Shown here: piece after piece, positions 6,832-47,839 of the stretch
Numbering within the stretch: the stretch's first letter is position 1
Layout: every line of letters starts with the position of its first letter
DNA from: a virus
Length of the DNA: 64,000 nt
IMG/VR virus record: IMGVR_UViG_3300043449_002510
Span: 32,001 to 96,000 of that record
Direction: 5' to 3' (one strand)
Made by a program: the position numbers and the translations under genes
Notes under the pieces: generated by a model
Databases searched by the model: none
The model's input: the letters and a program-made list of their open reading frames with translations, nothing else
Told to the model about the DNA's origin: nothing

Positions 6832-7107
6832 ATGAACTACGAAAATAGACAATATATGATATTTAATGTTAGTGAATTATCTAATATTAATTTTTCGGAA
6901 GTTTTAGAAACTTCTTCGGAAACAGTCCGAAAAAGCGTGGATGGTAGTAAAACTTTTGTTAAATGGGATGGCGAAAATACTCCACCCTCTGTTGAAGCTT
7001 TAGTTACAAAAGAGGGGCCATATACTTACTCAGAAATTTTGTCAATTTTGCAAACTCCAGAATGGACGCCGCCCGCCACAATTGGAGAATTAGCAAATGG
7101 CAACTAA
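6832..7107 (+). CDS. Hypothetical protein preceding the LamG-like cassette (possible fibre adaptor or chaperone)
   Basis: 91-aa ORF overlapping the next start; function inferred from context only. Confidence 0.65.
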   Translation: MNYENRQYMIFNVSELSNINFSEVLETSSETVRKSVDGSKTFVKWDGENTPPSVEALVTKEGPYTYSEILSILQTPEWTPPATIGELANGN

Positions 7108-7759: not shown

Positions 7760-7761
7760 TT

Positions 7762-8439: not shown

Positions 8440-8442
8440 AAT

Positions 8443-14503: not shown

Positions 14504-15121
14504 ATGTCTAACGTTTCATTTAAAGTTAATTATATTGAATTGGGAAAAATCTTTGAACAAAAGATTGATTCTGATTCAAGGGTTGGCAATTTAGTGGACA
14601 ATTATATCAAAAATTTTTTTCAAAAGAATAAAAATTTATTAATCTCAGAATTTAATAATCATAAAATTACTGTTGAATTAAGAAATGGTCCTGGGGCTTC
14701 AAATATTAGTAATACATTAGGTGGATATGGTAATTTATTTTCATTTTTTGGATTCTTTCAATCTAAAAATCCAACAAAAGAATTAGAAGATTTATTGTCT
14801 TCGATGTCTATAAGAAAAACAACAAGAAAAGGTAGAGTTTTTTATTATACAATCAACTTACCAACAAAATCTCAAATAGCGGAAGCAACAAGAATGGATT
14901 GGGGTTCTGGGACAAGTTGGGCTTATGCCGTTGAAAGCGGTGGATTTGGTGGAGATGCAGATTTATCACATTATATTTATAAAACTTGGTTAAAAGGCAG
15001 ATCGAAAAAAGGTGTTCAAATTAAAGCAAATTATTCAGAAAAAAACTTTTCTCCAAAACCTTATCTTACTCCTATTTTTGAAAATTTTCAAAAAAGAATC
15101 AATGCTAATATACAAGTGTAA
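14504..15121 (+). CDS. Putative neck/tail-completion protein
   Basis: Basic protein with WAYAVESG and FSPKPYLTP motifs reminiscent of HK97 gp10-like proteins; synteny. Confidence 0.45.
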   Translation: MSNVSFKVNYIELGKIFEQKIDSDSRVGNLVDNYIKNFFQKNKNLLISEFNNHKITVELRNGPGASNISNTLGGYGNLFSFFGFFQSKNPTKELEDLLSSMSIRKTTRKGRVFYYTINLPTKSQIAEATRMDWGSGTSWAYAVESGGFGGDADLSHYIYKTWLKGRSKKGVQIKANYSEKNFSPKPYLTPIFENFQKRINANIQV

Positions 15122-15131
15122 TTAATTTAAT

Positions 15132-15965
15132 ATGCACCCGCAATTAGATAATAAAATAATAACAAGCTTCCTTTTGTATATTGATAATAGAATTCAACAA
15201 GTGGGAGAAGCGTATTATAATACAAATGGATTATTTTATCCAACAATAAGCAATGTAAATGGTTTATATGCTTATACTTGCCCATATAAACAATTATGTA
15301 ATGATCTTTCGGTATCAAATGCAACAGTAATGTCTGGCGTTTATTTAAATAATACATATGTTTCTGTTGGACAATCTGGTTTAGTAGCTATAAATCATTA
15401 TGATGGAGCCGTTTATTTTAATTCAGGTTTACCCAAAAATACTATTGTAAGTGGAAATTTCGGAATTAAAGAATTTTCTGTCTATTTATCTGATCAACCT
15501 GATTATAAATTATTATTTGAAACCAAATATTATCCAAATCCCAGATATGGAAATATACCCAAGAGTGGACTTGCTTTAGATACAAAAACAGCTCCCGCTG
15601 TATATTTAACAATAAAAAGTCAAGAAAATAAACCTCTTGCTTTTGCTGGTTTAGATGATAATTCAATACAATTAAGGGCAGTTATTGTTGCCGAAAATGT
15701 TTATCAAAAGATTGCTGTTTGTAATATATTAAAAAATTTATATATGCGACCATTTAAATTAATAGAATCTACTCCAATTGATTATTTGGGCAATATGACT
15801 GGAATTAATTATAATTATGCCGAACTTCCGGCTAGTACTTTTTATAAACCATTAGTATTAAAAAGTAAAGTTTCTGAAATTAATCTTGATGGTGAGTTTT
15901 TGGATATGAAAAAGCAATTTGCCTTTGTTGACTTTGATATCTCCACTTGGAATGGTAATGTTTAA
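15132..15965 (+). CDS. Putative tail terminator protein
   Basis: PAVYL...PLAFAG C-terminal half; immediately precedes the tail tube gene. Confidence 0.45.
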   Translation: MHPQLDNKIITSFLLYIDNRIQQVGEAYYNTNGLFYPTISNVNGLYAYTCPYKQLCNDLSVSNATVMSGVYLNNTYVSVGQSGLVAINHYDGAVYFNSGLPKNTIVSGNFGIKEFSVYLSDQPDYKLLFETKYYPNPRYGNIPKSGLALDTKTAPAVYLTIKSQENKPLAFAGLDDNSIQLRAVIVAENVYQKIAVCNILKNLYMRPFKLIESTPIDYLGNMTGINYNYAELPASTFYKPLVLKSKVSEINLDGEFLDMKKQFAFVDFDISTWNGNV

Positions 15966-16064
15966 AAAGGATATTTTTTCACATAAGTTATTAAAAAATG
16001 TATCTATAATTAGATTTAAGATTTTAAAATCATTATAAAAAATTAATAAATAAAGGAATTTTAT

Positions 16065-16991
16065 ATGCCAACATCAATACCAAGAGTCGCTTATTTTGCA
16101 CAATCTGGAAAGTTAGTTCTTCCAAGAACTGGAATCGGTCAATCTGGAGAAACTATTTATGTTTTACCAGTTAATTCTGCAAATATTGAAGTAACTAGGC
16201 CAATTGAAGCCGTAACTGCTTTCGGACAATTTGATTCTTTAAATACTGCCCAAACTAATATTACCACTTGCAAGAGCACTCTCAAAGTTTATTTGGGAAC
16301 AGGAAATTTAATTTCTGGGTTAACAAGTACTCTTCTTGATGAATTAATTTCGACAACTCAAAGTGGAAAAATTGGAATTATAGTTGAACCTGCCGGTTTT
16401 AAAATGACTGGAATTCTTTCCAGTATTGGAATCGATATTTCTCTTGGAAGCTTTGCAATGGCAGATTTAAGCTTCGATGGAGTAGGAAACCCAGAAATTA
16501 CTGATGGCACATCGTCTGCTACAAGTCCAGGAACCAGAGCTATGACAATTGCTCCTGTCACCACTTTGTCTATTGGCAGTGGTCAAGCTTTATCTGGAAT
16601 TTTTGCTACTTCAATAAAATTCTCTTATGATCTTCCAACTGAAACCCTTGGCGCCCTTGGAGAAAATCCAAACGCAATTCAATCAGAAATGAGAAGTATC
16701 ATTGCTACTAAAGCGCCATATAAATCAAGTATTACTGTTGAAGGATATGGAATTGATCTTTCTAGCGGAAGACTTGATACTAGTATTACTGGAGTTTTCG
16801 GAATTGGAAATATAGGGGTTTCTCTTCCAAAGGCAAAGATTAGTTCTAAATCGTTAAATAACGCCGCCGGTCAAGTTAGTGCAACATTTAGTATTACTGC
16901 TGAAGACGTTGGAGCTACATTTAGTACAATTGGTGTCTCGGGTTACGCTCAAAACTTCTCACAATCTGGTCTTCCAATGTACGGCGGTTAA
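16065..16991 (+). CDS. Major tail tube protein (putative)
   Basis: 308 aa, S/T/G-rich beta protein with two similar halves; AAAGGA RBS; followed by a terminator, chaperones and the TMP. Confidence 0.65.
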   Translation: MPTSIPRVAYFAQSGKLVLPRTGIGQSGETIYVLPVNSANIEVTRPIEAVTAFGQFDSLNTAQTNITTCKSTLKVYLGTGNLISGLTSTLLDELISTTQSGKIGIIVEPAGFKMTGILSSIGIDISLGSFAMADLSFDGVGNPEITDGTSSATSPGTRAMTIAPVTTLSIGSGQALSGIFATSIKFSYDLPTETLGALGENPNAIQSEMRSIIATKAPYKSSITVEGYGIDLSSGRLDTSITGVFGIGNIGVSLPKAKISSKSLNNAAGQVSATFSITAEDVGATFSTIGVSGYAQNFSQSGLPMYGG

Positions 16992-17022
16992 TATTGAAAT
17001 TATATTTAATATTAAAAACATT

Positions 17023-17055
17023 AAACCCCAAATTATTTTGGGGTTTTTTGTTTTT
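17023..17055 (+). terminator. Rho-independent terminator after the tail tube gene
   Basis: AAACCCCAAA-ttat-TTTGGGGTTT stem-loop followed by TTTGTTTTT. Confidence 0.85.
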
Positions 17056-17085
17056 ATGTGTATATCCTTTTAAGGAAAAAGGATT

Positions 17086-17364
17086 ATGGTGGAAAACAAT
17101 CTCATCTCTCTTCAGATAGAGAAGGAAATAACTTCTCTCTTCAAATTTTATTTAGAAGAACTTGAGCAACTCAAGTTAGATCCAGAAAAACACGAAATAC
17201 TCCGCAAAAAAATATTAGACCATGGTAATGATACTATAAGAAATACTTTAATTTTCTTGGGATATTTTGATTTTACAATAAATACCAAAAAAGTAGAAGA
17301 AGCTTCAAAAAATAGAATTGTTTATAAAAAAACCATTATTTCTAATCCGATTTTTATAAAATAA
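17086..17364 (+). CDS. Hypothetical protein
   Basis: 92-aa ORF with AAGGA RBS and an upstream GTGTATAT motif. Confidence 0.7.
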   Translation: MVENNLISLQIEKEITSLFKFYLEELEQLKLDPEKHEILRKKILDHGNDTIRNTLIFLGYFDFTINTKKVEEASKNRIVYKKTIISNPIFIK

Positions 17365-17368
17365 ATAT

Positions 17369-18199
17369 ATGGAAAAAGAAAAGCAAAAATACATCTACGA
17401 AACAACTGTAAAAAAAGAAGTTTTTGAAAAGGTAACTGAAGAACGCGAAGAAAATGGACAAAAAATTCAAGTTACAAAAGAAGTAAAAAAAGAAAAGCCA
17501 GCAAAAATAGCTATTTTAAAACCAGATCGTAAAAAATATAAAGAAGCTGAAATTTTTTACGCAAAAACTCTTTCTAATTATTTAAAAGAAGGCTTGCTTC
17601 CTCATTCATTAGTTTCTAAAAGATATATAAACGATGGTGGTCCATTAACTGAAAGTGAAAAGAAAACTCTTAATGCAATGCGTGATAGATATAACGAATT
17701 GCAAGAAGAATATTTTAAAATGGAGAATCCATTAACTGATGAACAAAACAAAAGACGTGGAGAAATTATTCTCGAAATGAGCGAAATTAATCGTTTAGTA
17801 AAAGAAATTAAAAATTCTTATTCTGATATTTTTGAAAATACTGCAGAAGCTAAAGCTAAAAATGACACCATTGAATGGTGGGTTTTAAATTTGAGCTTAA
17901 TTAATGAAGATAATTCTGAGTACAAGTTATTTTATGGTGATGGAGATTTAGATTCTAAAATTAATTCTTTGGAAAATATTGAATCAAAAGATGACCCTTT
18001 TTATAACGAAGTAATAAAAAAATTATCTTATTTTATTAGCTTTTGGTATGCTTCTGGTGCTAATGCTAGTTTAGAAGATTTTAAATCAGCAGAAGAACAC
18101 TATAATTTAAATATTTCAACCTACTTAAAAGAAGAAATTACCCCCTCTGAAATAGATAAAAAAGTAGAAGAATTAAAAAAGGAAGATAAAAATTCTTAA
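17369..18199 (+). CDS. Putative tail assembly chaperone 1
   Basis: Charged, helical 276-aa protein between the tail tube and TMP genes. Confidence 0.55.
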   Translation: MEKEKQKYIYETTVKKEVFEKVTEEREENGQKIQVTKEVKKEKPAKIAILKPDRKKYKEAEIFYAKTLSNYLKEGLLPHSLVSKRYINDGGPLTESEKKTLNAMRDRYNELQEEYFKMENPLTDEQNKRRGEIILEMSEINRLVKEIKNSYSDIFENTAEAKAKNDTIEWWVLNLSLINEDNSEYKLFYGDGDLDSKINSLENIESKDDPFYNEVIKKLSYFISFWYASGANASLEDFKSAEEHYNLNISTYLKEEITPSEIDKKVEELKKEDKNS

Positions 18200-18208
18200 A
18201 TTTGAAAA

Positions 18209-19069
18209 GTGGACAATAAAGAAGAATTAAATATTTCAGAAGTAGACGAATTAAAACTTTTTTATTATGAAATTTTGAATGGTTCGTCTTTTATTTCAGA
18301 CAATTCTTTTTTTATAAAACACTTCTCAGAAAGAGAAAGTTATTTAATTCAAAAAAAGAAAATTGAGCTTTTCTATTACTACGCAAAAGAGGGGGTTCCT
18401 CATGAATCTGAAGTTTTAGAAAATTCTTTAAAAAATGGGGAATGGACAAAAGAAAAAGAAAACAAAATCCTTGAATTAAAATTTGCTATTTCTGATAACG
18501 AAAGAAATATTCAAAATATAATAATCGAACAGCGACCTTTGATTCAGGCCGCTATAGATGAGAATAAAAAAGAATTATCTGAATTAATTATTGAAAGAAA
18601 ACAAGTTTTAGGTAAAAGTGTTGAAGATTTAGTTGATGATGATATAAATGACTATATTTCTTTTATATCCTTTTTTAAAGATGAAAAATGTAAAATCTCA
18701 GCATTTGAATCTTTCGAAGAATTTGAAAAAATTGATTTTTATCAAATTTTAAAATTAAACAAAATCCTTTCTTCTCATTATGAGAAAATATCAGAATTAG
18801 TTATTAAGAAAATAGCTGCAATGCCATTTTTTTTAAATAAATTTTCTTATGCAAAAGAAGATATAAGTTCTTTTTTGGGAGTTCCATTAAATGATTTAAC
18901 TCATAATCAAAATCATTTATTTTCTATTGGAATAAGAAATTTAAATGTTTTATCCAATACAAACGGGAATCCTCCAGATTTATCATTGGGAGCAAAACCA
19001 ATAAACTTAGTAAATTGGTACGATATTCAAAATTCTATACTTATTTCAAAAAGAAATCAATCAAAATAA
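18209..19069 (+). CDS. Putative tail assembly chaperone 2 (GTG start)
   Basis: Charged, helical 286-aa protein directly upstream of the TMP. Confidence 0.5.
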   Translation: MDNKEELNISEVDELKLFYYEILNGSSFISDNSFFIKHFSERESYLIQKKKIELFYYYAKEGVPHESEVLENSLKNGEWTKEKENKILELKFAISDNERNIQNIIIEQRPLIQAAIDENKKELSELIIERKQVLGKSVEDLVDDDINDYISFISFFKDEKCKISAFESFEEFEKIDFYQILKLNKILSSHYEKISELVIKKIAAMPFFLNKFSYAKEDISSFLGVPLNDLTHNQNHLFSIGIRNLNVLSNTNGNPPDLSLGAKPINLVNWYDIQNSILISKRNQSK

Positions 19070-19112: not shown

Positions 19113-22100
19113 ATGGCAATGCAATTAAATGTTACGGTTAATCCCGTATTTAATAATTCTCAATTTACGGCAGCAGGAGTTCAGGCAGGATCTAATTTTG
19201 CTAATGGATTAAATTCTGCTATTTCTAAATCTCAACCATTAGGCAGAATAACTGGTCAAGTCTCTGAATTTGAAAAATCAATGGAAGCTGCAAACGCTCG
19301 CGTTTTAGCTTTCGGTGCTTCTGCTGGATCTATTTACTTGATAAAAAGCGCATTTGATAAATTGTTTTTCTCTACAGTTCAAGTTGAAAAAGCTTTAGCT
19401 GACATTAATGCGATTCTTGGAGTTGGAAGTTCTCTTTTAAAATCTTTTTCTAACGAAATATTCAAAGCCGCCTCTTTTACTGGTCAAACATTCGAAACGG
19501 CGGCAAAAGTAGCTCTTGAATTTGCTCGCCAAGGTGCTGGAGCGGAAGAAGCTGCAAAAAGGATGAAGGCTGCCCTAGAATTAATGAGAATTTCAGGTTT
19601 AAACGCAGATGAAGCCGTCAATTCTATAACTTCTTCCTTAAATGCTTTTTCAAAAGAAGCTTTAACAGCAGAAGATGTTGTAAATAGATTAACCGCTGTT
19701 GATACTAAATTCGCAGTTAGTTCAAAAGACTTGGCTAATGCACTTCAGCGTGTTGGGGCCGTTGCTAGTGACGCCGGAATTCAATTTAATGAACTCTTAG
19801 GTTTAGTTACCGCCGCTCAAACTATAACTGCTCGCGGTGGAGCAGTTATTGGTAACGCATTTAAATCTATTTTTACTAGATTAGCTAGACCTCAAGTTTT
19901 AGATGACTTGGAGGCCGTGGGAGTTACAACAAGAAATGCTTCTGGACAAATTCTTCCAATGATAAGCGTTTTAAAAAATCTTGCTAATCAATACAACTCT
20001 CTTGGTTCAGCACAGAAATCTTTTATATCTGAATCTGTTGGCGGAGTTTATCAAGTCAATATTTTAAAAGCGGCCTTGGCTGATTTAGGTGATGGCATTT
20101 CTATTTTTGATAAAGCAACAATTGCGGCAGGTCAATCTACTGGATTAATTCAAAAAAGAATGGAAGAGCTTAATGAAACAATTTCTTCCAAACTTAATAC
20201 TTCTGCTGTGGAATTGACAAAATTATTCGCTGATCTTGGACAAAAAGCTTTTGGTTCAAGCGCAAAAGGAGCAATAGACGCCTTTAATAAAAATATATCA
20301 TTTTTAAGTAATGCATTAAGTGACGTAGAGCCAGATGATAATGTTGGAGAACAAATAGGTAAAACCATTGCTCAAGGAATTGTTAAAGGAATAGGGGGAA
20401 TTATATCTGGCCCAGGAGTTCAAATCGCAGCAGTTTTATTAACAAAAATGTTTTCCAACATCGGGAAGTTTGCCATTGAGGCTTCTCGTGATTTTATGGG
20501 AGCAAATGAGGCTTTAAAAAAGCAGGAAAGTATTGTTAGTAGCATTCAAAACTTCTTAAGTAAAAATCCAACTATCCTCCAAGCAATAAAAGCTGGACAA
20601 TTAAATGTAAATCAAGCTCATTTAATTTATTTACAGCAGTTGCAACAAGAAAATCAACTTAGGGCTCAGAATGCTGCTATAGCTACAACAATTGCGACTA
20701 ATGCTGCACCTTATATAACTACTTCTAAAAAACAAACTCCTGGAGCTGGTTATATTCCTAATTTTGCCCAAGATGAAAGTAGTACTGAAAAAAGAATTGC
20801 TCTTAATCATGGATATGCTCCAGGCCCCACTTATAAAAAAATAATTCATGATGGAAAAGGTGGAGCTTTTTTAACTACAGTAAATGGAGCAGAAAATATA
20901 TATAACTTTACTAATAAAAAGGGTTATAAAGCTACAATGGTTGTTCCACCTAATGGATTTGGAGAAAACACAATGATGGCTGGCTCTGGTTTTATTCCAA
21001 ATTTTGCTAAAATTTCTCGAACTGGAACACAAATATCAAATAATAAAAGTTTTTCAACATTAATTAGTGGAAAACATGCAAATGGAATAGATACATTTAG
21101 TGCAAGCTATAATTTATTTACTTTAAATGAAACTAATAAACAGATTGAGAGAGAAGCGAAGGCAAAAAATATAAGTAAAGGAAGATTAACTGAATTAAAG
21201 GCAATTGAATATTTAAAGAAAAAATCTCCAAACAAAAAAGCCAATGACCTTAATGAAATTAATAGTACATATCCTTTTGATTTAGAACAGGGTGGTAATT
21301 TTTATGAAGTAAGGGGAAGAAGAAATGTTGGAGCGACCGCTCTCGTAGCAAAAGCTGCAAGATATAAAATAAATAAAAATAATAAATTTAATAATGTTAC
21401 TTTTGATTCTCCTCCCAAAAAACAATCAGAAGAATTAGGAAATTTTAATTTAATAACTTTAAAAAATTCTATATTAGCTAGCGAATTCTTAAATAAAGGA
21501 AGTGGATTTATTCCAAATTTCGCAGAGTCTTCTTTGCCGCCAATTCCATTTCAAATAGTTGGATTAAATAAAAAATTAAAAAATCTCAAAGAAAAAGCAA
21601 AACAAGATCCAAAACTTTGGGATCAATTTAGAATGGCGTATCAAGACCATGCCATAAAAATTTTTGAAAAAAAATTAACACAATTATATCCGGGAACAGT
21701 AATAAAAAGTTCTACTCCAACTGCAAACATTAGTGGAGCTGGACTTGGATTCACTGGTAAAAAAAGTTTTCCTGGATTCGATGGAGTTACAGAAATACAA
21801 ACAGTTAATCCAGATTTATTACAAATATTAGGATGGCCACCTAACAAAAATTCAGGAAAAATTCTTATTTCAGCAAAATCTGGATCTGAAAAAGGAGCAG
21901 ATGTAAGAGAACAATTCGGAAAAGGAGTAAGCGCTCTTTCTTCATCTGGATATTTAAAACCGGAAGAACCTTTTTATTCACTTGTAGCTGGACTTGTTCC
22001 TGGATCTGGTTTAAAACCAAATAATCCACTTCATCCTTTGGGACACGCCTATGCGTCTGGTTTTATTCCAAATTTTGTTTCTGAAAATGCAATTAATGCA

Positions 22101-25100
22101 CTGAGAGAAATTGCAAGTGGAAAGCGTGGTGGTACGAAAGCAGAAATTGCGAACGCACAAGAAAAAATAAATAAAATTTTAGGCTCAGATAAATTAAGTA
22201 AATCTTTAATATTAACGAACAGATCTTTATTTGGCAAAAAATTAGACTCTGATGCTTTGGCATATATTTCTAAAACTTCTCCAGAACAATTAACCAAAGA
22301 CTTAAAAAGTGGTTATTTAGAGGGATCAATTGGCCACGATCTTTCTAATTTTAGAAATTCAATATTTAGCGCTGGTTCTGGTTTTCTTCCAAATTTTGCT
22401 TATGGTTATTATTCTAAATATAGTTCTTCATATGGCAAACAAAGTGGATATAAACCTAGTAAAAGTTTACAAAAAGAAAAGGAAGAAAAGAGAAGACAAA
22501 AAGAATTATATGGAAATTATTATAAAAGCCCAGAAATAACAAGTAATCCTTGGTCAAAAAATTTCGGTAAAGATTTTTCTGCTTCAGGATTTCTACCAAA
22601 CTTTGGTTACTTAAAAAAAGTAATGGGATTAGAAAAAACTCTTAGCGGCAAGGAGCCAATTTTAGATACCACTACTGGTCCATTTCCTTTTATTAGGAAT
22701 ACAGACCAACCGAATTTTGCAGCAGCGGTCGCTGATCATGGAGGATTAAAAAATGCCTTAAAAGATTCTTCTAAAAATCAAAAAGCCGCTGGAATAATGG
22801 CTGGAGGTGGTTTTATTCCAAATTTTGGAGTAGAAGAAAGTTTAATGCTTGGCGTTGTTCAAGCTTTTTCTGGACAATTATCTTCAAAATTAAAACCTCT
22901 TTCTTTTGGATATGATAAACAAATTGAAGAAAGTCAAAAAGTAGTTTCTGCAGCTCAACCATTAGCCGACGCTTTTGACGAATTAAAAAATAAATTGGCT
23001 TCCGTAAGCAAACAATATAAAGAAGAAGCTAAAAAACGACAAACGCCAAAGAGAAGAGCCGAGCAACAAGCAAGAATCTCAGAAATGAAATCTGTCTCTG
23101 CAGAAATGCGTGTAAAACGAACTGAATATAAAAAAGAAACGGGATTAGATATTAACAGACAAAAAAGAGAAGATCAAGCTAAAAAATTTGTTGAATATGA
23201 ACAAAAATTAACAGGAACAAGAGAAAAAATACAGGGTATCAGTGGTATCGCTTCTATTGTTTCTCCAATGGCTGGAGGTATGGCGGCCTCTGCATTAAAA
23301 ACACTTGGAGTCTCACCAGATACCACAAAGGGAGTAGAAACTTTATTTGAAGGAGCAGGTATGGCTGGACAAGCATTAATGGCCATGCCTAATCCAATCG
23401 GAATAGCAGTTGCTGGACTTTTAGGCGTCACCAAAATAAACACAGCCTTAAATGAATTTACTTCTGGTCTTGAAAAGGCAAAAGCGTCTTATGAAAGAGA
23501 AATGCAATCAATAGAAAAAACAACTAATGCATTAAATTCAATTCAACAAAATTATCAAAATTTAGATAATATTTTAAAATCTGGAACCGCTTCTCTTTCT
23601 CAATTTTTATCTGCAAATAGAAAATTTTCAGAATCAATGGTTAAACTAGCTTCTGCTAATCCACAATTAGCAGAAAAAATGAGAAAAGCCACTACAGAAG
23701 AAGAAAGAATGGCAATTCAGAGTGAATTTTCAGAGGCTTCTGAATTAAAAAAGAGACAAAAAGAATTCGACGTAATGTACGCCGAGAGGAAAAAAGAAAC
23801 AAATGTTTTAGGGTCAAATGTTCTTGCGATGGGTCGTGAAAGAGGGAGATTTTCTGTTGGAATGTTTGCTGGAAAAGAAGAGGAAAAAAAAGTAGAAAGC
23901 GAATTAAAAGAAGCCGCAACATTAATTCAATCTGAAGTTATAGATGCTCTTTCAAAGAGTGAGAAAAAAGAAGAAAGAGATTTAGCGGCAGAAATAACCA
24001 GAGGTTTATCAAAAGGATACATTACTGAAGAAAACAAAAAAGAATTATTAAGTTATGCTGAATATGGAAGAGAAGGAAAACAGTATTCTGAAACTATTGG
24101 CAAAATGGATATTTATGCAGAAATAAAGGCTTCTTTACAAGAGTTATCTAAAATTCTCGATACTTTTGGAATGAGTGCAAGCAGTGTTGAACAATACGAA
24201 AATCTTCTAAAAGAACAAAACGAAATAACTAGTAAACAAAATGCAATAAGAAGAAAACATAACCAAGATTTACAAAACTCACTAAATAGAGGTATTACGC
24301 TTGGGATGATTGAAAATAAAAGACGCCAACAATCATTAGAACAAAAAGAAAGAGATACGGGCATGAAATATGCTTTTGAAGAATCTAATATAAATTTAGA
24401 GTCTTTGGTTTCTTCCGAAGCGGATATACGTTATAGACGCGGAGTTTCGAGACAAAATCAAATAATTGAAGAAGGACAATTAAAACAAGAAAAAACAAAG
24501 AGTGTCTTTGAAGAAAATCGTCTTGGACAATTAATGGAAGTAGTTAAACAACAAATGGAGGCAAAAAATGCTTCTTCATTAAAAAGTGGTAAAGATGTTT
24601 ATAGTATAGAGCCATCTAAAGAATCCCAATCCCTTGCTAATTTTTTAGAATCAAAATCTAAAGAATTTTCTGGAGGAAATGTTGGAAAATTAACTGAATT
24701 ATTAAAATTGACTCCAGAAAAATTTACTGAAGCTTTTCTTGGTCCAAAAGAGAAAGCGCAAAAAGATTTTGGAATTTCGAGTTCAACTTATGACACATTA
24801 TTTACAGATATACAAACCCTTACTCTTTCGGGAAAAAATACAGAAGAAACTAATAATTATTTAAATGATTTATTAAGAACCGCGCAAGAAACCAAGAATA
24901 ATGCTGAAAAAAATGCTTTAGAAACTCAAACTGCAATTAAAGAAATTAGTTTCAAAGAACTAAGTCAATCATTAGGCGGTTTAAGTTTGCTGGAAAGAGG
25001 TGGAGTTAGAAAAGAGCGTAGAGAAATAAGAAGAGCTGAATTTCTTGCTGAACGCGGAGCAACTCCAGAAGCTAGAGCTAGAGGAGCTGCTGCTTTATTA

Positions 25101-25946
25101 AAACGTATACCAGAAACCATGAGAGATGTTAGAAATCCAATGGTTGCTGATTTACTTAAAACAGTTGAATTAGGATTTCGATCTGGCAATGAAAAAGTTT
25201 TATCTGGAACTAAATTAGGTGCTTCTGGTTTAATGGGAAGTCCTGAACAAATGATTCTAGCTCAAACATATGGAAATATAAAAACATCTGGATTAGGAGA
25301 AGACTTCTTTAAGAAAGCGGGATTAACTATTGAAAAAGGAGAGATTGGTCGAGGTCAATTTCAAGAATTAAACACTGAGCCTTTACAACAATCCATAACA
25401 AAAATATCTTCATCTTTATATATTTGGGAAACAAATCTTTTAAACTCAATCAAATCAGTAAATTTTAATTCAGTAAAAACACAACTTTCTGATTTGGAAG
25501 AAGCTTCAAAAGGCGTGACTGACGAATTGAGAAATTTAAAAGAAAGCCTTACTCCGAAAACTCCAGTGGAATCAAAAGGTTCACCAAAAGCTATTCCAAC
25601 TAGTTTCGCTAATTTACAAGCGGTAGTAAGTAAAAACGCACCCTCTGAAACTTTAAATGTTACTCAATCAACTCCAAAAGTTAAAAAAACACCAGCAGGA
25701 AAAGAAGAGGAGTCTAAAAAGACAGAAAATAAATCAGAACAAGGAACGTCTGCATTAAATGAGGAATTAATTGAAAATATAAGATCATTAACTTCTGTCA
25801 TGAATGAAGCTGCAAATGCTTTTAAAGAATCTAAATCAACAATGAGCGCTGATGAACTTAAACGGGCTTTCGGTCCAACTAATGAAATTTTAGGCTCAAT
25901 TCTTGGCGCAACTCAGTCAGATAAAAATTTACCAGTTTCAGTATAA
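19113..25946 (+). CDS. Tail tape measure protein (TP901-like N-terminal core) with an internal multi-module insert
   Basis: Ala-rich helical N-terminus (VEKALADINAIL...EFARQG...DLANALQRVG...GGAVIGNAFKSIFTRL), hydrophobic segments and a long coiled-coil C-terminal half; position after the chaperones. Confidence 0.9.
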   Translation: MAMQLNVTVNPVFNNSQFTAAGVQAGSNFANGLNSAISKSQPLGRITGQVSEFEKSMEAANARVLAFGASAGSIYLIKSAFDKLFFSTVQVEKALADINAILGVGSSLLKSFSNEIFKAASFTGQTFETAAKVALEFARQGAGAEEAAKRMKAALELMRISGLNADEAVNSITSSLNAFSKEALTAEDVVNRLTAVDTKFAVSSKDLANALQRVGAVASDAGIQFNELLGLVTAAQTITARGGAVIGNAFKSIFTRLARPQVLDDLEAVGVTTRNASGQILPMISVLKNLANQYNSLGSAQKSFISESVGGVYQVNILKAALADLGDGISIFDKATIAAGQSTGLIQKRMEELNETISSKLNTSAVELTKLFADLGQKAFGSSAKGAIDAFNKNISFLSNALSDVEPDDNVGEQIGKTIAQGIVKGIGGIISGPGVQIAAVLLTKMFSNIGKFAIEASRDFMGANEALKKQESIVSSIQNFLSKNPTILQAIKAGQLNVNQAHLIYLQQLQQENQLRAQNAAIATTIATNAAPYITTSKKQTPGAGYIPNFAQDESSTEKRIALNHGYAPGPTYKKIIHDGKGGAFLTTVNGAENIYNFTNKKGYKATMVVPPNGFGENTMMAGSGFIPNFAKISRTGTQISNNKSFSTLISGKHANGIDTFSASYNLFTLNETNKQIEREAKAKNISKGRLTELKAIEYLKKKSPNKKANDLNEINSTYPFDLEQGGNFYEVRGRRNVGATALVAKAARYKINKNNKFNNVTFDSPPKKQSEELGNFNLITLKNSILASEFLNKGSGFIPNFAESSLPPIPFQIVGLNKKLKNLKEKAKQDPKLWDQFRMAYQDHAIKIFEKKLTQLYPGTVIKSSTPTANISGAGLGFTGKKSFPGFDGVTEIQTVNPDLLQILGWPPNKNSGKILISAKSGSEKGADVREQFGKGVSALSSSGYLKPEEPFYSLVAGLVPGSGLKPNNPLHPLGHAYASGFIPNFVSENAINALREIASGKRGGTKAEIANAQEKINKILGSDKLSKSLILTNRSLFGKKLDSDALAYISKTSPEQLTKDLKSGYLEGSIGHDLSNFRNSIFSAGSGFLPNFAYGYYSKYSSSYGKQSGYKPSKSLQKEKEEKRRQKELYGNYYKSPEITSNPWSKNFGKDFSASGFLPNFGYLKKVMGLEKTLSGKEPILDTTTGPFPFIRNTDQPNFAAAVADHGGLKNALKDSSKNQKAAGIMAGGGFIPNFGVEESLMLGVVQAFSGQLSSKLKPLSFGYDKQIEESQKVVSAAQPLADAFDELKNKLASVSKQYKEEAKKRQTPKRRAEQQARISEMKSVSAEMRVKRTEYKKETGLDINRQKREDQAKKFVEYEQKLTGTREKIQGISGIASIVSPMAGGMAASALKTLGVSPDTTKGVETLFEGAGMAGQALMAMPNPIGIAVAGLLGVTKINTALNEFTSGLEKAKASYEREMQSIEKTTNALNSIQQNYQNLDNILKSGTASLSQFLSANRKFSESMVKLASANPQLAEKMRKATTEEERMAIQSEFSEASELKKRQKEFDVMYAERKKETNVLGSNVLAMGRERGRFSVGMFAGKEEEKKVESELKEAATLIQSEVIDALSKSEKKEERDLAAEITRGLSKGYITEENKKELLSYAEYGREGKQYSETIGKMDIYAEIKASLQELSKILDTFGMSASSVEQYENLLKEQNEITSKQNAIRRKHNQDLQNSLNRGITLGMIENKRRQQSLEQKERDTGMKYAFEESNINLESLVSSEADIRYRRGVSRQNQIIEEGQLKQEKTKSVFEENRLGQLMEVVKQQMEAKNASSLKSGKDVYSIEPSKESQSLANFLESKSKEFSGGNVGKLTELLKLTPEKFTEAFLGPKEKAQKDFGISSSTYDTLFTDIQTLTLSGKNTEETNNYLNDLLRTAQETKNNAEKNALETQTAIKEISFKELSQSLGGLSLLERGGVRKERREIRRAEFLAERGATPEARARGAAALLKRIPETMRDVRNPMVADLLKTVELGFRSGNEKVLSGTKLGASGLMGSPEQMILAQTYGNIKTSGLGEDFFKKAGLTIEKGEIGRGQFQELNTEPLQQSITKISSSLYIWETNLLNSIKSVNFNSVKTQLSDLEEASKGVTDELRNLKESLTPKTPVESKGSPKAIPTSFANLQAVVSKNAPSETLNVTQSTPKVKKTPAGKEEESKKTENKSEQGTSALNEELIENIRSLTSVMNEAANAFKESKSTMSADELKRAFGPTNEILGSILGATQSDKNLPVSV
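20748..22826 (+). repeat. Seven dispersed in-frame G(F/Y)(I/L)PNF motifs inside the TMP
   Basis: Motif Gly codons at 20748, 20988, 21504, 22059, 22380, 22587 and 22809; three copies share the identical 18-mer ggttttattccaaatttt. Confidence 0.95.
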
Positions 25947-25961
25947 TATTTAAATAAATGT

Positions 25962-27752
25962 ATGTCATTTAAAGGTTTAATAACGGGAACATTAGGATAT
26001 GAATTAAGAAAAGATTTCTTAGCTAATTCTTTAATGTATCGTGAATTAGAAACTTTTAATTATGATATTTATAGCGTAGATTTTTCTGGACTTAGTGCTT
26101 TAGAAATTCAAAAACAAATAAAAAATGAATTTAATAACATTTATTCTGGTGATATAAACGTTAAAGTTTTTAATACAGCTAATGCTTTACAATATCCAAG
26201 CGACAGTATTAGAGCCGCACGTTATACAGTTAATGTAGAGATAGCCAAATCTCTTTCATATTCACTTTTAACTGGCCAATTTCCAGAGCTTGAAACAAGT
26301 TATTTTAAAGGTATAGATTCTTTGTTTTGGGCTAATAATGGAAAATATATATTAGATTTTAAAGAAGATTATGGTTTTGGAATAAATAGTAATGGTAATA
26401 GAGAATTTAATCACAATCTTTCGTTTTCTTTGAGAAGTGGGAAAATTTCAGATCAAATTGAAAGAAAAAATCTTGCTCAGAAGATCGCGACGGGAATATT
26501 TGATCAGGACAAAAATACAACATTTGGAATATCTTTGCTTTCTGGAGAGATTTCTTCAGTAGGAGATGCTTCAACTTTTAGAAATTATTATAATGAATCT
26601 TACGATTACTTCAAAAATTCTTATTCTTTTTCGAGACGTAGAGAATTATTACCTTTTTCTGATGCCAACACAATTTTTAATATAAATCAAACATTGACAA
26701 TGAATGAAAATGGAATCATTGACATTATTGAAAAAGGTTTTACTTTAGGAAAAATAAATTTTTCATTAGCTAAAAATGATTTAGAAAATACTTTATCTCA
26801 ATCTTATAATCGTTGTACTGGATTTTATTATAAATTTTATAATACTGGAATATTATTGCAAGATTCTCAATATAAAGATAATTTACCATTTAATTTTCTT
26901 CCATTAATTAACACTCCAGTAAAATTAGTAAAAAATTATGATGTAAATGTTCTAGCCGCAAATTATGAAGTTACATATACTAATAACCCCCAATTTTCTG
27001 GAGACGGAACGGTGACTTCCCAAACTGTTGAATTCAACATCAATGAATTTAATAAAGTTGAAGCAACTCATTCTTATGATTATACTTTAAATAAAATAAT
27101 TAAAAATTCAGATTATTTTGTTACGGGATTATTCAAATATACCACTGGAGAAAGTCCTTCCTTAATGTTTAATTATTATACAGGAATTTACTCAAATATA
27201 TTTTCAGTATATCCAAATTTAAATTTAACAAAATCTTCAGCTAATTTTCCTAATATAAAAACAAAAGCATCTGTTAGATTTACATATAATAATGATCCAA
27301 CTTATTTTGTAAATGTAAATGGAAAAGAGTTTAAAATTTTTGATGTAACAATTGACAAAAAAAATCCAACAGATATTGTAAGTGAATACAAAATTATAAA
27401 TCGAACAACAAAAGATAAAAAATCTATATTATCTTATGCTTATCAGACAGAAAAAGGAAGTATCATAATAAAAATTGTTGCAAATATAGGAAAATATAGT
27501 AAGCAATTCATTTCTGACGGAGTGGGAGACTTTTTATTAGTTGGATCAGATCATTCTTTTAAATTAAGCGAATATCTTGAAGCGATTTATAAATTTGCTG
27601 GACAAGCATTTTTTAATAATTTTGGACAACCAATGTCTGCTTTTAATTGGTTTATTGAAGATTCAAATTATTCTTTTAGTTCTGAAGGAATAATTGATGT
27701 CTCAATAACTTATGCTTATACATTAAAGAAAAGGAATTCAAACAATTTTTAA
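25962..27752 (+). CDS. Putative tail tip/baseplate protein
   Basis: Beta-rich 596 aa, directly after the TMP. Confidence 0.55.
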   Translation: MSFKGLITGTLGYELRKDFLANSLMYRELETFNYDIYSVDFSGLSALEIQKQIKNEFNNIYSGDINVKVFNTANALQYPSDSIRAARYTVNVEIAKSLSYSLLTGQFPELETSYFKGIDSLFWANNGKYILDFKEDYGFGINSNGNREFNHNLSFSLRSGKISDQIERKNLAQKIATGIFDQDKNTTFGISLLSGEISSVGDASTFRNYYNESYDYFKNSYSFSRRRELLPFSDANTIFNINQTLTMNENGIIDIIEKGFTLGKINFSLAKNDLENTLSQSYNRCTGFYYKFYNTGILLQDSQYKDNLPFNFLPLINTPVKLVKNYDVNVLAANYEVTYTNNPQFSGDGTVTSQTVEFNINEFNKVEATHSYDYTLNKIIKNSDYFVTGLFKYTTGESPSLMFNYYTGIYSNIFSVYPNLNLTKSSANFPNIKTKASVRFTYNNDPTYFVNVNGKEFKIFDVTIDKKNPTDIVSEYKIINRTTKDKKSILSYAYQTEKGSIIIKIVANIGKYSKQFISDGVGDFLLVGSDHSFKLSEYLEAIYKFAGQAFFNNFGQPMSAFNWFIEDSNYSFSSEGIIDVSITYAYTLKKRNSNNF

Positions 27753-27761
27753 AATAATTTT

Positions 27762-29411
27762 ATGCCATTAGATAGAAGACTTTATGTTTATTATGATGAC
27801 AAGGAGTTGTATCCAACTCCTTTAATTAATTATAGTTATCAACCAATAAATTTTGGCTATATTTATGGATATAATACAGAAATAACTCTAGAAGGGATAA
27901 TTACAGGAATAGATAATAAGGAATCTGGGATATCAGAGATAACTGGAATATTTGCAAAACAATTTTCTACTTTAAAAGTGGAAAACGAAAAACATAGTGG
28001 AATTTATCAATGGAATAATGTAACTGTTGACAATATAAGTTTTGAACAAAGTCAATATTTAAAAGGGAGTTTTGTAAAATATAACGTTAAATGTTTTGTT
28101 TATGATATACCAAGTGGAGTAATAGATCCTTCAAACGAATATTCTTTTACACAAAATGAAGATGGGACAGTAAACGTTAATCACAAAATTAGTGCGAGAG
28201 GTGTAAGAAATAATTTAGGAGCATTTCAAAATGCAATAAATTTTGTAAAATCTTTTACTGGAAAAGATCCTTTTTCAAATTGTGTGCCCTACTTTGTCCC
28301 TAGTGGATCTGGAGTTTTATTAAATTTATCTGAAAATATAAATAGAGCAGATGGAATTTATTCTGTTACTGAGGTATATAAGTATAATACGGGAGTTATT
28401 TCTGAAGCTTTACATATTACATCATTAGATATTGATGAAAGCTTGGGGTCTGAATATAGTTCAATAAGTTATAATTTAAAAGTTATTGGTTCTCCAATTT
28501 ATAAGAATACAGACTCAATTATAAGTAATTATTTAAATTATAATCTTTTAAATGATATTCAAAATGATTTTGGTTTAAATACATCTGGCTGGGTAAAAAA
28601 TACATATTCTGCCGCCGTTGATTCTGGAGCCGCAACAATTGATATAAAAGTCGAATATCTTTCTGGCGCAAATCCTAGTGGTTTTTTTGATTATGTTATA
28701 TCTTGCGACAAGGATCATTTAATGGGAATAGAAAATTGGAAGATAGAGGGAGAATTTAAATGTTTCGGTCCTTTAGATTATAAAATTAATCAATTAAACG
28801 CTTTCAAATCTACAAATAAGAATAATTCTTGGAGAACGTATTTAATTAATTTGATAACTAATTCGCAAATTTACAATTCTTTACATGATGTAGACAAAGT
28901 TTTTTCTATAAACACAAACGTTAATCAGGATGAAAATTTAAAAATCGGAGCTTTAAAGTTATCTCTTACTTTAAATATGGGATACGAGCCTGATGGACTT
29001 GCTGATTTAAAATATTCAATTAATGGAAGTCCAAGCAAATGGATCTACGAACTTATGCCATCGGTTAATATAGAAGGGGCTTATGTTGTTCAAAGTTTGG
29101 AGACAAAAACGAATGGCGTAATTGAATTAAATGTTTCAGCTAAATCTCTTCAAAAAGAAAATGGATTGAATCTATGCAATAGTTATATAAATAATTTGGC
29201 AAATACTTACATTGATTCTGGAAATGATTTGAATGTGAAAGCATTTTTGATTGAAGATTTTTATTCTACTGGAACATACGATGTTTCTTACTCAAAAAAA
29301 TTTATAGGAAATATAAAAGATATAGATTCAACTTTGGTTAATTTACAATGTTTTGGAACATTTGATTATTCAGTGCCAACAAGAATAAAAGGATATAATT
29401 TTGGTTACTAA
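27762..29411 (+). CDS. Putative tail tip/baseplate protein, possibly a distant paralog of the preceding gene
   Basis: 549 aa; NEYSFTQNEDGTVNVNHKISARG resembles EDYGFGINSNGNREFNHNLSFS in the 25962 product. Confidence 0.55.
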   Translation: MPLDRRLYVYYDDKELYPTPLINYSYQPINFGYIYGYNTEITLEGIITGIDNKESGISEITGIFAKQFSTLKVENEKHSGIYQWNNVTVDNISFEQSQYLKGSFVKYNVKCFVYDIPSGVIDPSNEYSFTQNEDGTVNVNHKISARGVRNNLGAFQNAINFVKSFTGKDPFSNCVPYFVPSGSGVLLNLSENINRADGIYSVTEVYKYNTGVISEALHITSLDIDESLGSEYSSISYNLKVIGSPIYKNTDSIISNYLNYNLLNDIQNDFGLNTSGWVKNTYSAAVDSGAATIDIKVEYLSGANPSGFFDYVISCDKDHLMGIENWKIEGEFKCFGPLDYKINQLNAFKSTNKNNSWRTYLINLITNSQIYNSLHDVDKVFSINTNVNQDENLKIGALKLSLTLNMGYEPDGLADLKYSINGSPSKWIYELMPSVNIEGAYVVQSLETKTNGVIELNVSAKSLQKENGLNLCNSYINNLANTYIDSGNDLNVKAFLIEDFYSTGTYDVSYSKKFIGNIKDIDSTLVNLQCFGTFDYSVPTRIKGYNFGY

Positions 29412-29444
29412 TTTTGTGTAATTATATTGGTAAAAAGGTAAAGA

Positions 29445-32375
29445 ATGAATAAGGATGTATTTTTAAATTGTTTGTCATATACTGGAATTAATACAGGAAT
29501 TTCAGTAATGGGTCTTTATTCTTTTTCTAGTGGTCTTTCTGGAGCTTGTTTCAATCAATTGTATTCATCTGGATATAATTATTTTAGTGGATTGCCGTAT
29601 GAAGGCGCTCTTCCATTAATTTATAATGGGGCTGGAAATCAAACTAGTGGTATTTTTTCTTCTAATCAGTCGTATCATATACCAATAAAAAATTTTAATA
29701 GTTTTGGTGCTTTAATTTCTTTAAATCATAGTGGCTGTTTAAATACTGGAAATACTAATTTAGTTTTATTCTCTACTGTTTCTGATTTCTCAGGAATAAA
29801 TTCTGGGATAGTATTGGGAATTACTCCTTCTAATAGGTTGTTTTTAAATGCTTCTGGATATCTTTCGACCATTTCAGAAGAAATAACTCCAAATGATTTT
29901 GTTTTCGTTAGTTTAGAAGAGAAAAGATTTGTTAATTTTGGAATATTTAACATAAAACATAATGAATTTTATAAAAAATCTTATGATTATAATTCTTCAG
30001 ATTTAATTATTGAGAAATTGTATTTTGGAGGGGTTTTGAAATATCCTTCTATTTATACGGGTTATTCTGGAAAATTAAATGAAATTTATTTTTTTAGTGG
30101 AGCTATAGATGATTTTTTGTTTAACTCTTGTATTGATTGCACTTATGCAACCGGATATTCTTATTCGCAATCAATAGATATTTTTAATCAAGTAAAAATA
30201 ACAGGTTCTTTCTGGAGTGGAATAAAAGAAACAAGAATTACTGGAAGCAAAAAAACAACGGGCACTTTTTTAAAAACCGATGGTTCAACTGGTAATTTTT
30301 ATTATGATTCTGGCTTAAGTGGAAGTGTAGAAGTTTATCAAAACTTATTTCCCGGAACAGGAATAGAAAATTTATATATAACAGGTAGTGGTATAGATTT
30401 TTATTTTGATTCTAGTAAAAAAATTTCTCAAACAAGTTTTGATTTATTTTTTGATCTGGGGTTAGATTCTGGAGATGTTCTGGAAATTTATACATATAAA
30501 AATTTTAATCCTAATGTTAACTTAAATATTATTGACGATTTTTTCCCATCTACAGATAATTATGTTCAATTATTTGCCAACGGTTTGGCCGAAACGAAGG
30601 ATGGAGAAAGTCAATATTTTTCAGATTTTTATACTGGTTTTAATAATAAAATTTATAATTTTGATTCGCAAGATATTCTTTCTTGTGATTTTACTACTGG
30701 AAATTCTATAACTATTCCTTACAATAATCAAGGTTGCATTACTGGTGAAGCCACTTCAAGCGAAGTGATTGATATATATCAAATAAACGCCTATCCCTTC
30801 TTCCCAGAGGTAAGTAGCGAAGAAGAAATTCCTCCTTTTATTTACGATCTTTATTTGAATGGCAAAAAATTAATAAGTGGTTTAGACTATATTATAACTG
30901 GAGTTCCGGGGGGTATTGATGGTTGGTCTAATCATATTTATCTTTCTGGAGATAATAGTTTGTTATTTAATTTAGAAAATCCTCAAGAATTTAAATTAGT
31001 TATATCTCAACCAAATTATGTAAGAAATTTATTTTATATAACTAAAGATACTCATTATTTAACTGGTTTGTCTGGATTTTCAGAGCAAATTTGGAAAAAT
31101 GGTATTCGTCAAAAAAATAAAATAGACTATTATATAAAGAATTCTTGTAATTTTTATTCTGGAGAATATTTAGATCCAAACTATTCTTTCCAATTATTAA
31201 ATTCTACAAATTCGTTTATTAATGATTTTACAAGTTTAGGTAATTATGTTTATAGAAATGCTCAACAACAAATAGAATCATTGACTCAAAATTCATCTGT
31301 TGATACGAAGAAAATTTTTTCAAATACTGATTTTATTAATTATGAAACTCAAACTTCTTTGCCTTCATGCGTTTTTAGTGGAAGTGGAGTAAATAAAAAT
31401 TTATACGTAACAAATATAAGCTCTGGAACAATAAAGAGTGGAATGTTTATATATGGGGCAAATTATCAAAATCAAATTATAACAGGATTTGTCCAAGGAA
31501 CCTATGGAAATACCGGTTTATATTCAACAAATACATCAGATAACTTTTCTCAAAAATTATTGACTGGCTATTCTATTCCAAATTTTGAAAGAAATACTGG
31601 TTGTTGGGTTTATCCTCTTGGAAAAGAATTGACATGTATCAGCCCATGGAATTCTCACAATTTATTTGAATCAAATACTAGAACTTGCACTTTAATAACT
31701 CCACAACATGTATTATGCGCCACTCACTTTCCACCAAATTCTGCCGGAAATACAATTGTTTTTGTAACGGAAGATAATCAAATAATTACAAGAAAAGTCG
31801 TAGATAATTCTTATGTCCAAAATTTCATGAGTGATTTACTTGTTATTTTGTTAGATTCTCCATTGCCAGATTCAATAAAACCATGTCTTTTATTACCTTC
31901 TAATTATTTAAATTATTTAAATTTTAAACCTATTATTAGTAACATTCAATATAGTTATAAACATACTTCTCCGGAAGTTTGCGGTCTTTTTTTAGACAAG
32001 CAAAAACAAGCCAATATAGGCGCTATGGAATTCGGTTTTAAATTAGATGGTGTTAATATAATAAGTAATGGAACAAGAACCGTTAGAATAATAGATTCAG
32101 AAAATGAACTTTTGAAATCTTTTTATGAACAAGTTATTGTTGGAGACTCTGGTAGCCCTCTTTTTCTTATAATAAATGGAAAACTGTGCTTGTTAACTAC
32201 ATTTAAAGATCCTGGAGGTGGACATTTGGTGGGAGATTATATTTCTTATATTAATTCCGCTATAGCAACACTAAAAATAGAAAATCCAGATTGGATTTCT
32301 ACTGATTATACAGTTACAGAATTTGACTTTTCTGAATTTGATAAACGAAATAATTATCCATTTTTTTATCCTTAA
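29445..32375 (+). CDS. Tail protein with an N-terminal LamG-like region and a C-terminal trypsin-fold serine protease
   Basis: YSGKLNEIYFFSG LamG-like strand; triad motifs TLITPQHVLCATH (His, 31725), SDLLVILLD (Asp, 31833) and VGDSGSPLF (Ser, 32148). Confidence 0.8.
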   Translation: MNKDVFLNCLSYTGINTGISVMGLYSFSSGLSGACFNQLYSSGYNYFSGLPYEGALPLIYNGAGNQTSGIFSSNQSYHIPIKNFNSFGALISLNHSGCLNTGNTNLVLFSTVSDFSGINSGIVLGITPSNRLFLNASGYLSTISEEITPNDFVFVSLEEKRFVNFGIFNIKHNEFYKKSYDYNSSDLIIEKLYFGGVLKYPSIYTGYSGKLNEIYFFSGAIDDFLFNSCIDCTYATGYSYSQSIDIFNQVKITGSFWSGIKETRITGSKKTTGTFLKTDGSTGNFYYDSGLSGSVEVYQNLFPGTGIENLYITGSGIDFYFDSSKKISQTSFDLFFDLGLDSGDVLEIYTYKNFNPNVNLNIIDDFFPSTDNYVQLFANGLAETKDGESQYFSDFYTGFNNKIYNFDSQDILSCDFTTGNSITIPYNNQGCITGEATSSEVIDIYQINAYPFFPEVSSEEEIPPFIYDLYLNGKKLISGLDYIITGVPGGIDGWSNHIYLSGDNSLLFNLENPQEFKLVISQPNYVRNLFYITKDTHYLTGLSGFSEQIWKNGIRQKNKIDYYIKNSCNFYSGEYLDPNYSFQLLNSTNSFINDFTSLGNYVYRNAQQQIESLTQNSSVDTKKIFSNTDFINYETQTSLPSCVFSGSGVNKNLYVTNISSGTIKSGMFIYGANYQNQIITGFVQGTYGNTGLYSTNTSDNFSQKLLTGYSIPNFERNTGCWVYPLGKELTCISPWNSHNLFESNTRTCTLITPQHVLCATHFPPNSAGNTIVFVTEDNQIITRKVVDNSYVQNFMSDLLVILLDSPLPDSIKPCLLLPSNYLNYLNFKPIISNIQYSYKHTSPEVCGLFLDKQKQANIGAMEFGFKLDGVNIISNGTRTVRIIDSENELLKSFYEQVIVGDSGSPLFLIINGKLCLLTTFKDPGGGHLVGDYISYINSAIATLKIENPDWISTDYTVTEFDFSEFDKRNNYPFFYP

Positions 32376-32393
32376 TTCCAAATATAATAATAT

Positions 32394-35768: not shown

Positions 35769-35769
35769 T

Positions 35770-37554: not shown

Positions 37555-37555
37555 T

Positions 37556-47828: not shown

Positions 47829-47839
47829 TATAATGCTTT

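Follow-up and report, generated by a model that had tools for sequence, protein, structure and literature searches.

Tape measure proteins (TMPs) are the textbook rulers of phage tails, and a few of them are known to carry one wall-degrading domain and to be cut once. In the locus described here, the middle third of the TMP is occupied by unrelated domains, each set off from the next by nearly the same short peptide. The locus lies in a stretch of 64,000 nucleotides, called the window below, which covers positions 32,001 to 96,000 of the IMG/VR virus record IMGVR_UViG_3300043449_002510. This record comprises 124 kb of an uncultured virus, with a CheckV completeness of 81% and a G+C content of about 30%. 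In the list of open reading frames (ORFs) and their translations, the TMP gene of the window (19113-25946, plus strand) codes for a protein of 2277 amino acids (aa), designated P0001. Residues 123-304 of P0001 match the Pfam family PF10145 (E 5.5e-25; 88.9 bits at a cut-off of 33.2), and residues 82-396 (19356-20300, plus strand) were identified by NCBIfam TIGR01760 as a TP901-type TMP core (E 1.4e-35; 123 bits at a cut-off of 28.8). In addition, 12 TMP families of PHROG match the protein, and by these profile matches P0001 is a TP901-type TMP. From the analysis presented here, it is highly probable that such TMPs are built as a rack of cassettes, with a junction peptide that is read in trans.

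Seven motifs and six modules in P0001

The motif G[FY][IL]PNF was identified seven times in P0001 by pattern matching, each time on the plus strand. The first copy reads GYIPNF (aa 546, 20748-20765), the second, third and fourth copies read GFIPNF (aa 626, 20988-21005; aa 798, 21504-21521; aa 983, 22059-22076), the fifth and sixth GFLPNF (aa 1090, 22380-22397; aa 1159, 22587-22604), and the seventh again GFIPNF (aa 1233, 22809-22826). The start-to-start spacings are 80, 172, 185, 107, 69 and 74 aa. A preliminary description of this DNA had given the number, places and spacings of the motifs, and all were reproduced exactly by the sequence scan. From the composition of P0001, 0.00017 motifs are expected by chance, and at least one motif was obtained in 2 of 20,000 shuffles. 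Outside P0001, no strict motif was found in the six frames of the whole window, and the only other matches to [ILVM]PN[FY] in ORFs of at least 70 aa are SIPNF at 31575 and LPNY at 36151. The helical C-terminal part of P0001, about 1000 aa in length, is without a motif.

The six modules between the motifs are all encoded on the plus strand and are all basic, with pI values of 9.0-9.9. Modules 1 (aa 552-625, 20766-20987) and 6 (aa 1165-1232, 22605-22808) are the conserved first and last end modules, as identified by alignment across loci for the former, by cluster membership for the latter and by AlphaFold for both. Module 2 (aa 632-797, 21006-21503) carries a net charge of +13 and has a single module-level relative, a module of the homologue P0013 with 43% identity over 162 aa. 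For module 3 (aa 804-982, 21522-22058), which is located between motifs 3 and 4 and has a net charge of +8, no module-level relative was found; only long gapped alignments to the homologues P0019 and P0020 were obtained (31-34%). Module 4 (aa 989-1089, 22077-22379) clusters with modules of four other TMPs, with identities of 40-44%. Module 5 (aa 1096-1158, 22398-22586), a basic module rich in Tyr, Ser and Lys between motifs 5 and 6, has no module-level relative at E values below 0.01. The modules had been described as mutually dissimilar, and all pairwise BLASTP comparisons gave E values above 1.9.

In Atlas, module 2 scored 0.88 to unnamed clusters and 0.85 to DpnI, and module 3 scored 0.89 to unnamed clusters and 0.85 to Mrr_cat, the lead threshold being 0.9. 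For a role of modules 2 and 3 as PD-(D/E)xK nucleases, the Atlas scores are below threshold, no Pfam match was obtained, and the AlphaFold confidence is low. A peptidase family was found neither in P0001 at E values up to 1 nor in the 10 homologous TMPs scanned.

The structure of residues 430-1300 of P0001 (871 residues) was predicted by AlphaFold from a 61-row alignment (A4), with a mean pLDDT of 57.5 and high scores for the core helices. Long helices extend to about aa 531 ahead of the array and start again from about aa 1261 behind it, and the preliminary description was thus fair in placing the array behind the N-terminal core and ahead of a C-terminal part made of helices. Inside the array, alpha+beta or broken-helical modules are predicted. 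Module 1 consists of one helix and four strands (pLDDT 93-97), and module 6 of a helix, two strands and two further helices (pLDDT about 90). These folded modules start two to three residues past a motif, and 7-14 residues precede a motif. All seven motifs are predicted as coil, within or bordering segments with a pLDDT below 50. A single repeat domain built from the motifs, by which the preliminary description could have been overturned, was not seen in this monomer model, with its seven low-confidence coils; the model is compatible with motifs that become ordered in a trimer or inside the tube. When the 871-residue model was compared to the PDB by Foldseek, nothing was found at E values up to 0.001. 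The wide VIA-align search returned coiled-coil matches only, which were limited to residues 1-109 of the model (Z at most 5.9), and the BFVD search only rows with a TM-score of at most 0.09.

Module exchange and selection on the junction peptide

With residues 530-1260 of P0001 as query, 181 matching proteins were identified, of which 120 are listed. The 120 listed homologues are all TMP-like proteins of metagenomic origin with 1544-3799 aa, and each contains 3-12 copies of the motif. A scan of IMG/VR revealed at least 588 relatives, from which 80 loci were kept for analysis. Among the 80 TMP ORFs of these loci, 72 contain at least two strict copies of the motif, six contain one and two contain none; the closest relatives showing one strict copy also hold relaxed copies, for example GGLVPNFA. 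The motif is confined to TMPs, with 368 copies in TMP ORFs versus three elsewhere in 104 loci. Cultured phages share the TMP core only, with 23-28% identity over aa 8-405 when aa 1-640 were used as query, and no cultured relative was found when aa 530-1262 were compared to phage GenBank records by tblastn.

When the 120 listed TMPs were cut at the motifs, 537 modules in 102 clusters were obtained; for 200 TMPs, comprising the listed homologues and the IMG/VR loci, there were 815 modules in 151 clusters, 89 of them singletons. Module order and content vary freely from one TMP to another. In the nearest full-length relatives, with a core of 53-59% identity, aa 4-634 and 1235-2036 are kept and the centre is replaced. 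Module 1 is part of a region (aa 430-640) that could be aligned in 79 of the 80 IMG/VR loci, and the cluster of module 6 is present in 90 of the 120 listed homologues. As judged from these comparisons, modules are exchanged between relatives at the positions of the motifs, while the core and the two end modules are conserved. This is what the preliminary description had predicted from homologue alignment, namely conserved flanks with modules of variable number and identity, and a fixed order of the same six modules was not observed.

In some homologues, modules correspond to known domains. Within the motif-fenced modules of 10 homologous TMPs, the only Pfam matches are ART-PolyVal, DUF7178 and GNAT, and most modules are without a match. 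P0107 contains ART-PolyVal at 877-1037, between the motifs at 849 and 1049, and DUF7178 at 1064-1260, between the motifs at 1049 and 1335. GNAT domains were identified within single modules of P0008 and P0118, whose cluster is present in 26 of the 120 proteins. A wall hydrolase was not recognised among the module clusters. In the IMG/VR loci, the middle module that occurs most often (alignment A5) has invariant Glu, Asp and Lys columns which look nuclease-like; nothing usable was obtained for it from a PDB profile search, a Pfam scan or a homologue search, and it is unrelated to modules 2 and 3 of P0001.

Three of the IMG/VR TMPs (L070, L072 and L073) contain three tandem copies of one module of about 200 aa, each following SKGH[IV]PNF, which indicates module duplication inside the array.

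A further 24 relative loci were identified in a collection of species genomes, 23 of them on contigs titled as metagenome-assembled genomes and one under a strain-assembly title. Their labels are mixed, with 9 of 24 reading Flavobacteri*; among the others are Saccharibacteria, Neomarinimicrobiota and Cellvibrionales. In all probability, contigs of phages were binned here with their hosts or by chance, and no host is claimed because bin labels are weak evidence.

Over 655 motif sites, conservation is limited to positions -2 to +6 and the flanks are free, giving a consensus of about nine residues, [AS][SGK]G[FY][IV]PNF[A]. In leave-one-out counts, Gly was found in 625 of 628 sites, Pro in 625 of 625, Asn in 625 of 642 and Phe in 625 of 645. 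For motif 2, G626, P629, N630 and F631 are invariant in an alignment of 20 sequences (A1). The codons of the motif vary synonymously at every position, which shows that it is the peptide, rather than the DNA, that is under selection. A recombination joint at the DNA level and gene conversion were ruled out by these differing codons.

In one lineage, the peptide has changed at all sites together. At locus L005, AGGF[VI]PNLA is present at four of four sites between modules of different clusters, with CTA, TTG, TTA and TTA as the Leu codons, and at locus L060 PNL is present at three of five sites. Nine pairs of PNL within the same protein were counted versus 1.4 expected, a value reached in none of 2000 shuffles; this test ignores relatedness, and its signal is carried mainly by L005 and L060. 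That PNL has taken the place of PNF throughout a protein speaks for a single common reader acting in trans, and it fits a reader that cuts and a reader that binds alike.

These data also bear on the idea of a structural joint, in which the motif would be a clamp that brings three TMP chains back into register behind each globular insert, or a tolerated recombination linker. The motif marks every exchange point, and T5 TMPs are described as trimers (PMC10038345), both of which would suit such a joint. However, the monomer model gives coil and no repeat domain, and the synonymous codons around an invariant peptide rule out a mere joint at the DNA level. In addition, a self-packing clamp would not need a joint change of all sites, yet L005 changed at four of four, and the independent change at each of these sites speaks against both gene conversion and purely self-packing joints. 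A structural joint is thus improbable.

Proposed cleavage, possible binding and the search for the reader

As in a polyprotein, a short conserved peptide is present at every module junction of P0001, in predicted linker. A possible reading, which we hold to be somewhat short of probable, is that the peptide is a cleavage signal by which modules are released, and that the TMP acts as a polyprotein. The middle third of the TMP would then have been turned into a cargo rack of six basic, separately folding modules, bounded by the small conserved end modules. The short linear peptide, held in a flexible linker at each junction, would be read in trans by one common factor. In keeping with TMP biology in general, the protein would be laid down in the tail lumen and would leave the tail before the DNA when the phage infects, and the modules would be delivered into the host along with the DNA. 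Cutting at the motifs would free them inside the host, where they may act on host targets.

The preliminary description had proposed a polyprotein releasing several independent effectors, and this reading is supported in part. The polyprotein is favoured by the variable cassettes, the reader in trans and the enzyme domains in homologues, whereas no common protease was found. For the effectors, GNAT, ART-PolyVal and DUF7178 in homologues are in favour, whereas no recognisable enzyme or toxin family was identified among the modules of P0001. For some modules of relatives, the term effector is taken from the family name only.

For phage T5, maturation of the TMP pb2 into pb2* and pb2C has been described, with a cut after R1127 that lies between a hydrophobic stretch and the enzyme domain; both parts stay in the tail (Linares 2023, PMC10038345). 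No TMP other than pb2 has had its cut mapped. For the lambda TMP the cut site is unmapped, and how the lambda or T5 TMPs are cut is stated as unknown in PMC12617516; in the sequence of lambda gpH, no such motif was found. The likeness of the T5 site NSFVPR/AEGG, the slash marking the cut, to SGF[IV]PNFA is suggestive and no more. As described, pb2 differs in having one cut site, no array, no cassette shuffling, and Arg in place of Asn-Phe. In a wider form, the motif would be the address label of a general phage system for protein injection, in which fenced domains are loaded in the tail lumen and cut free at infection, the cutter being the same as for T5 pb2 FVPR/A and possibly host-assisted. 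This wider form is rather unlikely.

Several findings weigh against release by cleavage. The modules of P0001 match no Pfam, NCBIfam or PDB family, and modules 2-5 are predicted by AlphaFold as broken helices of low confidence. In the homologue search, free-standing homologues were found neither for modules 2-5 nor for the module family that is most frequent in the IMG/VR loci, and modules without such homologues could equally be cargo or integral parts of the TMP. Many homologues have a degenerate sequence at the first motif site, such as GHIPAF or GYVPTA, and only the three residues F-[VI]-P are common to the motif and the T5 site. A cognate protease travelling with the substrate was not found across the family. 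The candidate of this phage, a trypsin-fold domain, was detected by profile search in none of the 14 records of relatives, three of which are at least 90% complete, and the orthologous tail proteins of relatives end before it; no other protease common to the family was found. Furthermore, the conservation of the motif, its codons, the exchange of modules, the fit of domains between motifs, the predicted coil, the change to PNL and the confinement to TMPs fit a binding signal equally well.

Such a binding signal could be an uncut handle for assembly, docking to a tail-assembly chaperone (candidates are the products of 17369-19069), to the tube lumen or to the hub. It would keep the non-helical inserts ordered while the tube polymerises over them. 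A linear peptide which is borne by linkers and confined to TMPs is consistent with this, the coordinated change from PNF to PNL fits any single reader, and the lack of a common protease among the results would find a simple explanation. Relatives keep an ORF of about 288 aa immediately ahead of their TMP gene, and the modules were not found outside TMPs. The lumen of the tail tube is negatively charged and would be suited by modules which are all basic. However, the motif flanks inserts only and is absent from the helical C-terminal part, which likewise needs chaperoning, and the whole GNAT and ART inserts suggest a function after delivery. An uncut handle is the main rival explanation, possible although doubtful.

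The trypsin-fold serine protease domain of this phage is located at the C-terminus (31560-32372, plus strand) of a conserved distal tail protein of 976 aa (29445-32375). Its catalytic His, Asp and Ser are intact and invariant in 20 relatives, the domain was modelled by AlphaFold with a pLDDT of 79.8, and Foldseek identified plasmin, tryptase and chymotrypsin with a probability of 1.0 (E about 2e-8 for plasmin and chymotrypsin), which confirmed the trypsin/chymotrypsin fold. The family, which has no Pfam entry and shows a GDSG[NS]P motif, comprises at least 2041 proteins. Its members often carry Big_2 or CBM5_12 domains in fusion, as in tail enzymes degrading surfaces, and the domain probably belongs to a tail enzyme that attacks proteins on the host surface. 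In the profile search for the domain, its own genome served as positive control (E 4e-88), and a scan of viral contigs with the single domain gave no match. By its distribution, the domain is an add-on of the P0001 lineage. Being absent from relatives whose TMPs carry the motif, it cannot be the general reader, and the tail-tip protease was rejected as a general cutter.

For this phage only, the domain could still cut the TMP at the motifs on exit from the tail tip, and may in addition release itself at the GYSIPNF that lies upstream of it. The sequence SIPNF directly ahead of the domain contains the one IPNF of the window that is not in the TMP, and cleavage behind Phe would be expected of a chymotrypsin-like enzyme. 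However, the extra residue in G-Y-S-I-P-N-F sets this sequence apart from the TMP motif, and it overlaps a family-wide [YF]-x-R-N element with which its Phe aligns. The assumption that IPNF is a feature of the protease family was rejected, with LPNF or IPNF at the domain boundary in only 1 of 150 relatives. In addition, the 14 relatives without the domain keep the motif in their TMPs. A local cutter of this kind is improbable as well. A complex prediction for the protease domain (residues 10-271 of alignment A2) with aa 606-650 of the TMP gave 0.00 versus a mark of 0.32, a result without controls which counts neither way.

The cut might also be made by the TMP itself. Capsid proteins of nodaviruses, tetraviruses and reoviruses undergo assembly-dependent cleavages at Asn-X, and in the fixed turn G-F-I-P-N-F the Asn could cyclise to a succinimide, with a break ahead of Phe, once the TMP is confined in the tail. 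Gly, Pro and Asn are near-invariant, which is stricter than most protease sites need, and for this explanation, too, it counts that no family-wide protease was found. When the sites are aligned on F-[VI]-P, the T5 cut follows the residue equivalent to Asn, but in T5 this residue is Arg. The motif is moreover a nine-residue peptide in a predicted disordered linker with no evident catalytic surroundings, and the co-variation of Phe to Leu at the next position points to a binding pocket and not to chemistry. Self-cleavage is accordingly very improbable.

Related systems, genomic setting and meaning

Viral polyproteins and the precursors of ribosomally synthesised and post-translationally modified peptides, like cyanobactin PatE, contain variable cassettes between short conserved peptides which are read by one enzyme. 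The array of P0001 follows the same logic without homology, and cutting is here only proposed. MuF polymorphic toxins are head proteins with one C-terminal toxin each. They are likewise virion proteins with variable domains, but belong to the head and not to the tail and have no internal array; a Pfam match to the MuF domain of phage head morphogenesis was not obtained for P0001.

Polyvalent proteins, known from phages and conjugative elements, combine unrelated domains in one virion-associated chain which is thought to enter the host with the DNA, and their domain content is mosaic and fast-changing (Iyer et al. 2017, PMC5512222). ART-PolyVal, a domain of the polyvalent family itself, is located between two motifs in the homologue P0107. 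Processing of polyvalent proteins into separate units by an in-chain MPTase peptidase domain has been proposed in the same paper, and unlike in these proteins the MPTase domain was not found in P0001. The paper mentions no TMP and describes no repeated junction peptide (PMC5512222). The modules of P0001 match none of the domains of polyvalent proteins, and to no module could an activity be assigned.

Enzyme domains inside a TP901-type or related TMP, which are presumably expelled, are also present in T5 pb2 with its metallopeptidase (PMC10038345) and in SPbeta YomI, annotated as a transglycosylase. These TMPs contain a single cell-wall enzyme without junction motifs, in contrast to the up to 12 motif-fenced modules, from at least 151 sequence clusters, identified here. 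A published description of a motif-fenced TMP array was not found in the literature searches. On the sequence level, the array would be a variant of TMPs with embedded domains and of polyvalent proteins, unpublished as far as these searches reach.

Past the array, a hydrophobic segment rich in Gly and Ala (aa 1421-1447, 23373-23453, plus strand) was identified by a Kyte-Doolittle window above 1.4. It is located in a stretch rich in Gly, Ala and Met (aa 1381-1447, about 23253-23453) right after the motif array, and homologous TMPs show weak glycine-zipper matches in the equivalent region. The stretch is a candidate for a membrane-inserting segment.

The order of tail genes is kept in relatives, with products of about 288 aa, the TMP, and then about 600, about 550, 605-976 and about 1000 aa. 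In the window, the block of tail genes covers about 16065-38482, and the genes directly upstream of the TMP gene (17369-18199 and 18209-19069) code for products of 276 and 286 aa. Among the 12 flanking ORFs scanned (14504-19069 and 25962-38482), no real PHROG or Pfam match was found, the only two Pfam rows being sub-threshold and both on 17369-18199. The tail module of the P0001 lineage is thus unannotatable with current libraries, and its gene order is conserved all the same.

Two further groups of ORFs were observed elsewhere in the window. At 7097-9168, three tandem paralogous ORFs code for 220, 225 and 241 aa, each with matches to phrog_24074 and phrog_8510, 'virion structural protein'. 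At 42921-52738 on the plus strand, two giant ORFs lie next to each other and differ little in length (1635 and 1632 aa); they may be tandem paralogues, for example of fibre or decoration proteins.

For the biology of this family, the analysis describes a large uncultured group, with at least 588 relatives in IMG/VR, which uses the middle of its tail ruler as an exchangeable rack that includes acetyltransferase and ADP-ribosyltransferase domains. More than 150 module families, most of them unannotated, are flagged as candidates for early-acting phage factors. If the peptide is a signal for cutting or loading, it would provide an experimental handle on TMP maturation, a new route for pre-made phage proteins into the host ahead of the genome, and a natural framework with which phage tails could be loaded with proteins of choice. 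Should the motif be the address label of a general injection system, TMP maturation would for the first time have a code in sequence, and the array would be a cargo rack made by nature that can be re-programmed.

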